From an uncultured Selenomonas sp. (lineage in GTDB: Bacteria; Bacillota; Negativicutes; Selenomonadales; Selenomonadaceae): DNA of 64,000 nucleotides. The notes under the pieces are model-generated. The model was not told where the DNA came from. It searched no databases and saw only the letters and a list, made by a program, of their open reading frames with translations. The position numbers and the translations under genes are program-made. Positions within the stretch are counted from its first letter, which is position 1; each line of letters starts with the position of its first letter. The stretch lies in NCBI RefSeq assembly GCF_963528755.1, contig NZ_CAURXA010000003.1:113030-177029 (forward strand), given 5' to 3'. Of this stretch, positions 5,915 to 45,107 are shown piece by piece.

Positions 5915-5989
5915 GGCTCCTTCGTCAAGTGGTTAAGACACCGCCCTCTCACGGCGGGTTCATGGGTTCGAATCCCATAGGAGTCACCA
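5915..5989 (+). tRNA. tRNA-Glu (anticodon CUC), CCA encoded
   Basis: Cloverleaf folded by hand: acceptor GGCTCCT/AGGAGTC; D arm GTC-AAGTGGTTAA-GAC; anticodon stem CCGCC/GGCGG with loop CT-CTC-AC; 4-nt variable loop; T arm ATGGG-TTCGAAT-CCCAT; discriminator A plus CCA. Confidence 0.9.
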
Positions 5990-42056: not shown

Positions 42057-42515
42057 ATGAGCATTTTTTCCAGATTCCTGCCCAAGAAGAAGCAGCCGGA
42101 AATCAAGAACAATATTCCAAAGGAAAAGGCGAACATCAAGAAGACGTTCGGCATCTACTGTCACAAGGAGCACGGCACGGAGGGCGACAAGCTGTGCCCC
42201 AAGTGCACGGCGCTCCTTGCCACCGTGCTGATGAAGATGAACCGCTGTCCCTACGGCATCACAAAGCCGATCTGCGACCGCTGCGAAAACCCGTGCTTCT
42301 CGAAGAGCCAGAACATCGAATTCCGCAAGATCATGACGGCGAACCAAAAGAGCATGCTGCTGCGCCACCCGATCATGACGATCAAGCACAAGCTCGCGAG
42401 CATGGGCGTCGACTATGCGCTCAAGGAACGCGCGAAGAAGGAGCAGCAGAAGGTCGATGCGAAGGAGAAGGCGGCGAAGCGCCGCGAGGAAGCGCGCAGC
42501 AAAAAAAAGAAGTGA
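42057..42515 (+). CDS. nitrous oxide-stimulated promoter (YgbA) family protein
   Basis: 152 aa. Cys-rich core YCHKEHG....LCPKC..L......R..RCPYG..KP.C..C...C. Lys-rich tail. Confidence 0.8.
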   Translation: MSIFSRFLPKKKQPEIKNNIPKEKANIKKTFGIYCHKEHGTEGDKLCPKCTALLATVLMKMNRCPYGITKPICDRCENPCFSKSQNIEFRKIMTANQKSMLLRHPIMTIKHKLASMGVDYALKERAKKEQQKVDAKEKAAKRREEARSKKKK

Positions 42516-42846: not shown

Positions 42847-43695
42847 CTAAGCGATCACGTTCCGAAGATCGCCGATGCCCTCGATCTTCACGACGATCTC
42901 GTCACCTGCCTTGAGCCAGCGCCGCTCCTTCTCGGGCAGACCGAAGATCACGCCGTGCGGTGTGCCCGTGAAGATGACATCACCGGGATCGAGCGTCATG
43001 CACTTCGAAATATAGCTGACGATGGCGGCGGGCGAGAAGATCATGTCCGCCGTCGTCCCATCCTGGCGCATCTCGCCGTTGACAAACGTCTGAACAGCGA
43101 GATGCGAGACATCGATCTCTGCGGCGGGCACGATATAGGGGCCGAGCGGCGCGAAGCCGTCGGGCGTCTTGCCGAGCAGCCACTGCGAGGTGCGGCGCTG
43201 CAAGTCCCGTGCCGTGAAGTCGTTACCCGCCGTATAGCCAAAGATGGCGGCGGCGGCCTCTTCCTCAGCTGCATCCTTGACCTTTTTCCCGACGATGACG
43301 ACAAGCTCCGCCTCGTAGTCAAGCTCCTTCGCGCCCGTGGGCAGGCGCACCTCGCCGCCTGAAGCGTTGAGTGCGTTATTGAACTTGCTGAAGAGCGCCG
43401 GATATTTGGGCGCCCCGAAGGGAACCTCCGCACGGTGGCTCGCGTAGTTCAATCCGACGCAGAGGATCTTGCCCGGCGCCGTCACGGCGGGCGCAAAGCG
43501 CAGTCCGTGCGCCAAAGGCTTCGCGTGTTGCAGAACGCTTTCGATCTGCGGCCGAATCTTCTCCCAATCGGCAAAGATTTCCTGCCAACCCCAGCTATAG
43601 CCGACGGCGCTGACATCGACAGTCTTCTCTCCGTCGCTCGCACCGATATGCACGGCGCCGTCCTCGGCATAGAAATTCAAGAGTTTCACGATCAT
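42847..43695 (-). CDS. fumarylacetoacetate hydrolase (FAH) family protein
   Basis: 282 aa, ..KILCVGLNY..H..E.......P..F.K......G..V..P.....LDYE.ELVVIVGK......GYT..ND.TARD.Q......W...K..D.F.PLGP.. Confidence 0.9.
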   Translation of the reverse strand: MIVKLLNFYAEDGAVHIGASDGEKTVDVSAVGYSWGWQEIFADWEKIRPQIESVLQHAKPLAHGLRFAPAVTAPGKILCVGLNYASHRAEVPFGAPKYPALFSKFNNALNASGGEVRLPTGAKELDYEAELVVIVGKKVKDAAEEEAAAAIFGYTAGNDFTARDLQRRTSQWLLGKTPDGFAPLGPYIVPAAEIDVSHLAVQTFVNGEMRQDGTTADMIFSPAAIVSYISKCMTLDPGDVIFTGTPHGVIFGLPEKERRWLKAGDEIVVKIEGIGDLRNVIA

Positions 43696-43774: not shown

Positions 43775-43803
43775 TTGTATTTTGTCTCCTATCATGATAT
43801 AAT
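43775..43803 (+). promoter_or_regulatory. near-consensus promoter facing into an ORF-free 600-bp gap
   Basis: TTGTAT (43775-43780), 17-nt spacer, TGaTATAAT (TG 43795-43796, TATAAT 43798-43803). Confidence 0.6.
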
Positions 43804-43809
43804 GAAGCC

Positions 43810-44395
43810 GTAAAGAGGAGAAAGGACGGGCAACGCCAGCGACGAGGACAAGCCTGCATGCAGGTCGGACTCCGCGGGCAGGGCAAGTGCCGGTCAGCCG
43901 AAACAGGCTCTTCTCAATGTGGTTACACGAAAGGTGTGAGGTTTATTGAGGAATAAGCTTTTCCTTCTCCACCTGAGGGTTTCCGGCTAGGAAGTGCACA
44001 CTTTGCATACGAATCCCGCAACGACGGACTGACGAATGGGCAGCGGCCTGGCAGCTCCGAAGGCATTGCGGAAAAAGGCACAACGTCGGAAACAGCGTGG
44101 AGAAGCCCGTGGCAACTTTCACCTTGTCGATGCGTACGCGAGGGTCATTCAGTAGATTGCGCAGTCCCCAGATCGGAACCGAGATACCTGCCGAGCCCGG
44201 GATTTTGAACGATGACGAGTGATGCATCAATCTGTGATATTCCATCACAACCGTTCGATCGAACCGCTTCATACAGCATGGAGGCTTCATCGCGGAGCGC
44301 CATGCAAGACAATTGAATACGAAGGAAAAAGGGTATATGACGATCAAAAGATAAACCCGCCGAGAGAAGTCCCGTGAGACTCCTGCGGCGGGTTT
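43810..44395 (+). ncRNA. candidate large structured non-coding RNA (about 590 nt), class unknown
   Basis: Bounded by a promoter and a hairpin. No plus-strand ORF of 60 aa or more. Many GC helices with GAAA-type loops that I paired by hand (see findings). No RNase P, tmRNA or riboswitch core that I recognise. Confidence 0.4.
44353..44395. terminator. bidirectional hairpin terminator (radical-SAM gene on the minus strand; possible 3' end of the plus-strand RNA)
   Basis: AAACCCGCCG-loop-CGGCGGGTTT. The minus strand is followed by ATCTTTTG and the plus strand by ATTGC (UUUAUU including the stem end). Confidence 0.7.
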
Positions 44396-44402
44396 ATTGC
44401 TG

Positions 44403-45065
44403 TCAGCTTCCCTCATACGTGCGCACGCGCAAATCAAGCCCCCGCGCCTCACACAGTGCGCGGCACTTTGCGATTTCTTCCGCGCCCTCGACCTTTTCGA
44501 CGATCGTCAAGACGACGTGCCTCGCATAGGCCTTCATCTTCTCAGCGAAAGCGAGCATCGCTTCGAAGGATTTGATACCGAACTCGCTTCTCGTCAGCGC
44601 CAAATAGCGTTCGGCGTTCGACGCATTGAGGCTGATGGAAACGGTATCAAGGATGCCGCCCGCGAAGTCCGCCGCCGTGTCACGTCCGTAGACGAGATCC
44701 GAGAGGCCGTTCGTATTGACGCGCGTCGGCAAGTCGGGATGCTGCTCCTTGACGAAGCGCAGCAGTTCAATGAGGTCGGCAAGGCGCATCGTCGGCTCGC
44801 CGAAGCCGCAGAAGACAACTTCCTTCACCGAGTCCCAAGGCGCGGCGAGGAGAGCCGCCTTGACTTCCTCGACCGTCGGCTCTTTGCCGCCGAGCCACAG
44901 GCTCATGTCCTCGGGCATATCCTTCATCGTGCGCAGGCAGAAGGTGCACGCACACGGACATTCATTCGTGATATTGACGTAGAGGCCGCGCTTCCCTTCG
45001 GGGCGGCGCTTGAGGCTTTCTTCGGGCAAGAGGTACTTGCCGCGATCGACCATGTAGACAAGCAT
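44403..45065 (-). CDS. TatD-associated radical SAM protein
   Basis: ORF trimmed to ATG 45065 (GGAAAGGA RBS). Radical-SAM cluster motif NITNECPCACTFC, and FCGFGEPT. Confidence 0.85.
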   Translation of the reverse strand: MLVYMVDRGKYLLPEESLKRRPEGKRGLYVNITNECPCACTFCLRTMKDMPEDMSLWLGGKEPTVEEVKAALLAAPWDSVKEVVFCGFGEPTMRLADLIELLRFVKEQHPDLPTRVNTNGLSDLVYGRDTAADFAGGILDTVSISLNASNAERYLALTRSEFGIKSFEAMLAFAEKMKAYARHVVLTIVEKVEGAEEIAKCRALCEARGLDLRVRTYEGS

Positions 45066-45107
45066 AGATATTTTCCTTTCCAAAAATGTGGATAAATTCC
45101 ACTCCGT

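Follow-up and report, generated by a model that had tools for sequence, protein, structure and literature searches.

The 64,000-nt stretch of DNA analysed here (hereafter the window) comes from an uncultured Selenomonas sp. (contig NZ_CAURXA010000003.1, positions 113,030 to 177,029). Between a gene of the FAH family and a radical-SAM gene it contains a region, ~43810-44400 on the plus strand, that would be the gene of an independently transcribed structured non-coding RNA (ncRNA). Comparison of homologous sequences makes it very probable that this is a real structured ncRNA family absent from Rfam. The complete picture, in which a predicted RNA of ~590 nt folds, stands free of its neighbors and associates with itself, is one that we favor mildly. 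The RNA would then be no mRNA leader but a free-standing molecule like OLE, ROOL or raiA, and pairing of two of its elements (44220-29 and 44253-64) with their counterparts in another copy would join the molecules into a symmetric dimer or a higher oligomer. An earlier reading of the window, made from the sequence only, had proposed a large ncRNA of unknown class at this place, and the proposal is supported by the conserved signals of the unit, by covariation and by the lack of an Rfam match.

A predicted transcription unit in the gap

The gap is 707 bp long and extends from the FAH-family gene (42847..43695, minus strand) to the radical-SAM gene (44403..45083, minus strand). Its G+C content is 0.48-0.56 vs. 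0.59-0.64 in the flanks, so the lower GC content that the sequence-only reading had pointed out is real. A putative promoter lies at 43775..43803 on the plus strand and consists of the -35 element TTGTAT (43775-80), a 17-nt spacer and the extended -10 element TGaTATAAT (43795-803). These are the coordinates and the spacing originally proposed, and the motifs are kept in the homologs, 27-29 of which retain the -35 (TTGCAA or TTGTAT), the TG and the -10 with a variable spacer. The promoter was not listed by a consensus scanner because just 3/6 positions of the -35 match. Transcription is predicted to start near G43810.

At the other end of the gap an intrinsic terminator (44353..44399, plus strand) is predicted, in which AAACCCGCCG (44353-62) pairs with CGGCGGGUUU (44386-95) and is followed by UAUUG. 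The same GC hairpin had been described at the DNA level as the closing element of the region (AAACCCGCCG, 44353-62, with CGGCGGGTTT, 44386-95). This hairpin is indeed there and shows covariation, with 5/9 pairs of the helix (helix 19) changed on both sides, and in most homologs it is followed by a U5-6 run on the plus strand. The terminator is two-way and is shared with the convergent radical-SAM gene, the stop codon of which lies at 44403-05. Sequence conservation begins at ~43735, just 5' of the -35, and ends at the terminator. Judged from these signals, 43775-44400 (plus strand) is a complete predicted transcription unit with promoter, ~590-nt body and terminator, and its own promoter and terminator are both conserved, as is typical of a stand-alone ncRNA gene. 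The body (43810..44400, plus strand) is predicted to be structured and non-coding on the basis of full-length nhmmer homologs, covariation and the absence of an Rfam match.

No open reading frame (ORF) on the plus strand is longer than 52 aa, in agreement with the earlier statement that none reaches 60 aa. The 169-aa ORF that had been listed on the minus strand (43943..44452) does exist and runs into the radical-SAM gene, and its presence in the window could point to a decayed or unrecognized protein-coding gene. However, this ORF is not conserved, as it is 115 aa long in locus L001 and absent in the other homologs. No conserved long ORF was found among the homologs, a check which the sequence-only reading had named, and the longest ORFs are inconsistent in strand, place and length. 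A mini-ORF of five codons is the only one conserved, so that no protein-coding ORF speaks against a stand-alone ncRNA gene. The region is furthermore more conserved than its coding neighbors, unlike a pseudogene, and the substitutions in its helices are compensatory. We give a decayed gene next to no credence.

Homologs and distribution of the RNA

A genome scan anchored on the radical-SAM protein gave 80 loci. By blastn, the full region was found in three uncultured Selenomonas genomes only, with identities of 96%, 90.6%, and 85%, and in the same three close relatives the flanking genes have 83-95% identity. For L003 the comparison is 90.6% identity in the RNA region vs. 85-86% in the neighboring coding sequences. 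The RNA region is thus conserved equally with or above the neighboring coding sequence. Iterated nhmmer searches raised the number of full-length copies to 27 or more, from Selenomonas spp., S. ruminantium, Mitsuokella and Megamonas, and a metagenome scan with an RNA-derived pattern returned 40 loci, 26 of them true homologs. Removal of redundancy at ≥97% identity left 29 sequences for structure analysis. With the final profile, 50 full-length and 9 partial copies were detected.

The hosts are oral, gut and rumen Selenomonadaceae, and from the sequences at hand the family is confined to Selenomonadaceae, as far as sampled. The element is missing beside the radical-SAM gene, the only position examined, in 48 of the 80 genome loci. 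These 48 consist of 42 loci from Selenomonadaceae or related bacteria, including the fairly close L004, and the outgroups L075-L080.

Two short natural variants of about 390-430 nt (L035:6674-7057 and L095:2662-3045) retain the 5' domain and the 3' tail with its mini-ORF and terminator, and are without the middle and the 3' domain that carries both palindromes described below. Because the natural short variants retain the 5' domain and the 3' tail alone, we infer that these two parts probably form the indispensable core of the RNA. L008, L032, L029, and L036 are likewise partial copies.

Covariation supports a multi-domain fold

Consensus folding and pair counting were carried out on the 29 non-redundant sequences with slid alignments and 500 shuffles as controls. 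Base pairs could form in 89.0% of the cells (slid controls 37-45%), 45/94 pairs had changed on both sides (19-34), the number of cells changed on both sides was 189 (39-76), and the covariation score was 0.277 (0.06-0.10). Four of five measures were not reached by any of the 500 shuffles, and the fifth, further pair types, was reached by 2/500. The pair-counting tests differ from R-scape and were applied to related sequences, but the margin over the slid controls is large despite this kinship. The multi-domain fold is supported by covariation, which was the comparison among homologs that the sequence-only reading had called for, and a secondary structure backed in this way is a further property of stand-alone ncRNA genes. 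An all-against-all covariation scan was swamped by clade effects and was replaced by the consensus folds with slid controls.

Two observations, the conserved promoter and the frequency of G-U pairs, support the assignment of the RNA to the plus strand. G-U occurs at many positions in a large share of the sequences, and since a G-U pair would be a C-A mismatch on the opposite strand, the RNA is on the plus strand.

The way in which the helices change also bears on the idea of a DNA-level element, in which the gap would be the regulatory region of the divergent gene and the palindromes operators for dimeric regulators. The region adjoins a divergent promoter, its conservation begins upstream of the -35, and several palindromes are present, all of which would fit. 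Operators keep their sequence, however, whereas in this family the sequence shifts and the complementarity, including G-U, stays. Moreover, covarying helices that span up to 100 nt have no rationale at the DNA level, and the divergent gene varies (yqeB, selD, FAH) while the element persists. We therefore regard a DNA-level element as highly improbable.

The first domain, on the plus strand like all elements of the fold, is a three-way region (43815..43915) made up of a closing helix, an irregular arm and an invariant hairpin. The closing helix (helix 2) is formed by GAGGAGA (43815-21) and UCUUCUC (43909-15) and is 96.6% paired. The irregular arm (helix 3, 43824-38 / 43881-94) is 78.8% paired with 9/11 pairs changed on both sides. 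The hairpin AGCC-GAAACA-GGCU (helix 5, 43896-909), which had been picked out by eye, is 100% paired and invariant in the homologs. It is followed by a helix between UUCUCAA (43911-17) and UUGAGGA (43945-51), spanning 43911..43951 and enclosing UACAC-GAAAG-GUGUG (43924-38). This helix, first proposed as CTCAAT/ATTGAG, is 96.1% paired among the homologs vs. 37-57% in slid alignments, with two pairs changed on both sides, and the enclosed TACAC/GTGTG hairpin, also proposed earlier, forms in almost every lineage, though its length varies.

The 3' strand of the closing helix and the 5' strand of the CTCAAT/ATTGAG helix overlap on 43911-15. The pyrimidine tract UCUUCUCAA (43909-17) can accordingly pair either with 43815-21 or with 43945-51, and both pairings are conserved at ~96%. 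The two competing helices may represent a conformational switch or a junction that migrates.

Five of the six helices drawn in the sequence-only reading recur in the family. The sixth, between 43817-26 and 43962-70, is unconserved: its mean duplex energy is -7.9 vs. -7.0 kcal/mol for shuffles, and it is favorable mainly in the window clade, L005 and L019. The conserved partner of the 5' purine tract (as GAGGAGA, 43815-21) is UCUUCUC at 43909-15, and the Shine-Dalgarno (SD)-like box at the 5' end is therefore a helix strand. Two other pairings were also discarded. Pairing of 43959-70 with the 3' GAAGGA box is favorable in a minority of lineages (again mainly the window clade, L005 and L019) and not family-wide, and a long-range GAUG/CAUC helix (43933-36 / 44137-40) suggested by RNAalifold clashes with a better-supported local hairpin.

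Domain B (43979..44093), a long and irregular arm, is conserved more widely than any other part of the RNA. Its helices are CCGGC (43983-87) / GUCGG (44085-89), GUGC (43994-97) / GCAC (44078-81) and CCGCAA (44016-21) / UUGCGG (44066-71), followed by inner helices within 44027-44065. The CCGCAA/TTGCGG pairing of the sequence-only reading is among the best-covarying helices of the family, with UCCUCAG/CUGAGGA and UCCAAU/AUUGGA as its counterparts elsewhere. In the alignment of domain B, 24/32 pairs have changed on both sides and 89.5% of the cells are paired vs. 27-40% in slid alignments. A covariance model of the domain (R1) found it in 32/81 sources, including five distant loci from outside the training set with scores of 49-72 bits.

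Further downstream, the hairpin UGUGAU-AUUCC-AUCACA (44233..44249) lies between the two self-complementary sites; it too had been seen in the window sequence (TGTGAT/ATCACA) and is formed in nearly all lineages. A variable hairpin (44277..44304) contains GCUUC (44284-88) / GGAGC (44294-98) inside CAUGG/CCAUG. It is supported by 4/6 pairs changed on both sides (helix 18), and compensatory differences are found even inside the window clade. Three palindromes of the window clade, CCUGCAUGCAGG (43853-43864), GCGUACGC (44132-44139) and GAUUGCGCAGUC (44155-44166), sit in clade-specific insertions, and at least the first of them can be folded as an ordinary hairpin.

Two self-complementary sites

Site 1 (44220..44229, plus strand) has the self-complementary sequence UGAUGCAUCA. 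The equivalents in other lineages are GUGUACAC, UGUGCACA, GCGCGCGC, GUGCGCAC, UGCACGUGCA and ACGUUGCAACGU, all of them palindromic, and altogether the site is palindromic in at least 10 sequence versions. Site 2 (44253..44264, plus strand) has the sequence GUUCGAUCGAAC and could form a short hairpin or a duplex, with central four bases that are always palindromic. It corresponds to the palindrome noticed earlier at ~44254-63 and is 98.6% self-complementary across the family (helix 16), with 4/5 symmetric pairs changed on both sides. The center is AGCU in most sequences, GAUC in the window clade and GGCC in L100, and the neighboring bases at this center are unable to pair within one chain.

Computed cofolding of two copies of the segment from site 1 through the hairpin to site 2 gave a mean predicted dimer gain of -12.2 kcal/mol vs. 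-7.7 kcal/mol for shuffles, and the gain was below the shuffle mean in 28/29 sequences. That two elements remain palindromic despite changing sequence suggests homodimer or oligomer formation, and self-pairing of the two sites is a reasonable inference for most of the family. Dimerization of the RNA as such is a tentative proposal, to which we assign somewhat less than an even chance.

In most lineages the two halves of site 2 (UCAG, CUGA) are identical in sequence to the strands of the CUGAC/GUCAG helix of domain B, and they change together with it in the L033 clade (compared positions: 43983-87 / 44085-89 vs. 44254-63). A pairing of the site 2 halves with this helix was rejected, as it fails in the window clade and in L100. 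The match may be an alternative pairing or a coincidence.

Comparison with known large RNAs

Searching the 64-kb window with Rfam 15 (4227 models) at gathering scores gave a tRNA gene (5915-5986, plus strand, 61.4 bits) as the only match. When the region itself was searched at E≤10, four chance matches to unrelated families appeared, all with E>1. There was no match at this place in 11 homologous loci at gathering scores or in 5 diverse ones at E≤5. The cmscan comparison that the sequence-only reading had recommended thus found no family match, either for the window or for any of 16 homologous loci. The exclusion of RNase P, tmRNA, riboswitches and group II introns, made from the letters only, agrees with the absence of matches to these Rfam 15 models, and SRP, 6S, raiA, and HEARO gave no model match either. 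Distant blastn searches of phage and plasmid collections returned nothing similar, and pattern scans of viral contigs gave 0 and 17 matches, none of the 17 being a homolog. No description of this RNA was found in the literature, including an ncRNA survey of the oral metatranscriptome and the Breaker-laboratory surveys (26 and 50 genomes).

The RNA is a new family among the large ornate bacterial RNAs of unknown function, with OLE, ROOL, and GOLLD as the closest, in kind only. The resemblance to these three that had been suggested from size and appearance holds with respect to size, complexity and self-complementary loops, and does not extend to family membership. OLE (RF01071) is likewise an RNA of ~600 nt with many helices, encoded by a stand-alone RNA gene in anaerobic hosts of Firmicutes lineage. 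The OLE homodimer forms partly through a symmetric kissing loop, L9.3, in which the central tetranucleotide switches between GGCC, GAUC, and AGCU, and this switching was taken as comparative support for the kissing loop (Kretsch et al., 2025, PMC12286853). ROOL and GOLLD assemble as RNA-only multimers via kissing loops (PMC12286853). Site 2 of the window RNA switches among the same three tetranucleotides as OLE L9.3, and a symmetric self-pairing loop with a covarying palindromic center is common to the two RNAs, a likeness in kind only.

In other respects the window RNA differs from OLE. It gives no covariance-model match (E≤10 for the window, E≤5 for five homologs), its conserved sequences are others, its hosts are Selenomonadaceae and not extremophiles, and its dimerization is deduced from comparison where that of OLE has been observed. 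The immediate neighbors are yqeB, selD or FAH and the radical-SAM gene, as compared with oapA at OLE; no OapA-specific search of the wider loci was made. ROOL (RF03087) and GOLLD (RF01998) are also large ornate RNAs of unknown function, and ROOL was first seen in rumen samples, but the window RNA matches neither model, has no phage context and occupies a fixed chromosomal position. Bacterial RNase P RNA (RF00010, RF00011) is of comparable complexity, and a P4-like string had been mentioned in the sequence-only reading. The window RNA has no match to it at E≤10, and the GAGGAGA sequence belongs to an ordinary helix with UCUUCUC.

A very divergent member of OLE, ROOL, GOLLD or RNase P, beyond the reach of current covariance models, would share several of these features. 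The size is near that of OLE, the host is a Firmicutes-derived anaerobe, the center of site 2 switches among the GGCC, GAUC, and AGCU of OLE L9.3, and a few short strings are loosely like conserved regions of RNase P, although this last point is a by-eye reading and not a test. Yet cmscan was blank for these families in the window at E≤10, in five homologs at E≤5 and in 11 loci at gathering scores, the immediate neighbors do not include the gene of an OLE-associated protein, and there is no phage context. We consider such a distant membership improbable. An undescribed class of large ornate RNA from culturable bacteria of the human gut, the mouth and the rumen, in which two covarying self-complementary elements join copies into a symmetric homodimer or oligomer made of RNA only, is possible, though we would call it doubtful in this full form.

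The 3' tail and a possible cis-acting role

The 3' tail (44308..44354, plus strand) consists of the conserved sequence GACAAUUGAAUA (44308-19), the SD-like box GAAGGA (44321-26) and the mini-ORF ATG ACG ATC AAA AGA TAA (44337-54). ACAA, GAAT, and the ATG are invariant in this tail, and the SD-like sequence AGAAGGA precedes the invariant ATG. The mini-ORF has five codons in 27/29 sequences and eight and ten codons in the other two, a 9-nt in-frame insertion being present in L100, and its stop codon lies directly before the terminator stem in 28/29 sequences. The peptide is unconserved, and the SD-like box lies at a variable distance, about 4 to 12 nt, from the ATG. Pairing of the ATG with the extreme 5' end of the RNA is likewise possible (helix 1, YGUA/UAUG, 95.6% paired), with one-sided changes only.

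Such a tail could be the output of a cis-acting riboregulator whose sensor is the fold itself. With the SD-like box and the ATG free, a ribosome would translate the 5-codon mini-ORF and halt at its UAA, where the terminator stem begins, the hairpin would be blocked and transcription would read through. In most lineages this read-through would be antisense into the convergent radical-SAM/TatD operon; in the S. ruminantium clade a membrane-protein gene would be read in the sense direction. Precedents for this kind of control are AspocR of Listeria and, in the ubiG operon of Clostridium acetobutylicum, an antisense RNA under S-box control. We judge this scheme to be unlikely, but it is the alternative that we take most seriously.

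Much of the genomic arrangement agrees with it. A promoter, a structured leader and a terminator face the 3' end of the operon in nearly all loci, including those that were found by RNA pattern, and the terminator abuts the radical-SAM stop codon. The invariance of the ATG, the position of the stop just 5' of the terminator stem, the retention of the tail in the short variants L035 and L095 and the pairing of the ATG with the extreme 5' end all fit an output element. The two helices that contest one pyrimidine tract could be the switch, and in the S. ruminantium clade a co-directional gene follows 60-70 nt past the terminator. As in the riboswitch-controlled antisense RNAs (e.g., the ubiG S-box), a promoter, a structured RNA and a terminator are placed opposite the 3' end of an operon.

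Other observations argue against this scheme. The convergent placement at the operon 3' end is that expected of an attenuator, but the covarying antiterminator is missing: in a search for one, upstream complements to the terminator arm were scattered, none covaried, and their energies were no better than those of shuffles. The terminators are strong, being long and G+C-rich, and are followed by U runs, like those of stand-alone RNA genes. The spacing between the SD-like box and the ATG is variable, and the changes in helix 1 are one-sided. Close relatives tolerate a toxin-like insert of 317-377 bp that separates the terminator from the radical-SAM gene. Finally, at 590 nt the RNA is far above the size of known sensors and three to five times larger than the riboswitch-controlled antisense RNAs, and it matches no known aptamer.

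The free-standing, self-associating RNA that we favor has to be weighed against several observations that tell against it. The constant position facing the radical-SAM gene fits a cis-acting role equally well, as do the conserved SD-like box, the ATG and the stop at the terminator. All site 1 equivalents except ACGUUGCAACGU have a strict alternation of purines and pyrimidines, which makes chance palindromes likelier, and the p-values from shuffles of the individual sequences are just 0.02-0.6. The center of site 2 has changed just twice (in the window clade and in L100), and the dimer z-scores of single sequences are modest with a mean of -1.55. L035 and L095 are without the whole palindrome domain, and self-pairing is therefore not essential to the core function. 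All sequences belong to one bacterial family, so the covariation events are few and not independent. The z-score of the minimum free energy of the single window sequence is unremarkable, at -1.75 for the plus strand and -1.23 for the minus strand. The description of the region as highly structured is not borne out by these values, and high structure could not have been established from the window sequence alone.

Genomic neighborhood

In nearly all loci the convergent downstream gene encodes a TatD-associated radical-SAM protein (TIGR04038/TIGR04100), and this includes the loci found by RNA pattern only, which have the same gene order. In most lineages (e.g., L016, L005, L009, L100) the divergent upstream gene is yqeB, a gene for selenium-dependent maturation of the molybdenum cofactor (TIGR03309), and in Megamonas (L019) it is selD. 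Only the window clade and a few relatives from metagenomes have the FAH gene upstream, and it was rejected as a conserved partner of the RNA as the upstream gene is yqeB or selD elsewhere. A link of the RNA with selenium or molybdenum-enzyme genes is possible, but it may be inherited gene order.

In close relatives an insert of 317-377 bp is found between the terminator of the RNA and the radical-SAM stop codon (L001:4730-5046, L002, L003, and the metagenome loci L082, L090, L105, and L118), which corresponds to an insertion point at 44400-44402 in the window. It carries its own TATACT promoter, a hydrophobic ORF of 34 codons (VTFLTFILSILAGVIANHISKWLDARDDGDEPER) and a terminator, its 5' region recurs as an inverted copy, and the whole looks like a type I toxin-antitoxin module. 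The insert is absent from the window, L081 and L104, and thus varies between strains.

The S. ruminantium clade (L033, L007, L014, L031; L083, L116) has a membrane-protein gene between the RNA and the radical-SAM gene. It lies 60-70 nt past the terminator, is co-directional with the RNA and encodes a multi-pass protein of 240-246 aa without a match in NCBIfam, which we take by eye to resemble Bax-inhibitor-1/YccA-like proteins. Elsewhere in the window, the gene at 42057-42515 on the plus strand encodes a Cys-rich protein of 152 aa from the nitrous-oxide-stimulated promoter family (NCBIfam E = 1e-21, below the curated cut-offs).

Implications

To our knowledge, only a handful of classes of bacterial structured RNAs longer than 500 nt exist. 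Each such class is unusual, among them being ribozymes, membrane-associated particles and RNA nanocages. If the RNA described here does self-associate, it would join OLE, ROOL, and GOLLD as a further natural family in which quaternary contacts are conserved. The comparative signature predicts the self-association in a directly testable form, and the hosts include culturable species with type strains (S. ruminantium ATCC 12561 and Mitsuokella multacida DSM 20544) as well as Megamonas. The natural deletion variants separate the core from an accessory domain, and the genomic position is fixed. Were the RNA instead a cis-acting riboregulator, it would be an unusually large sensor that gates a terminator through a 5-codon ORF. 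On either reading, the family provides a new covariance model with which an unexplained 0.6-kb gap in these genomes can be annotated.

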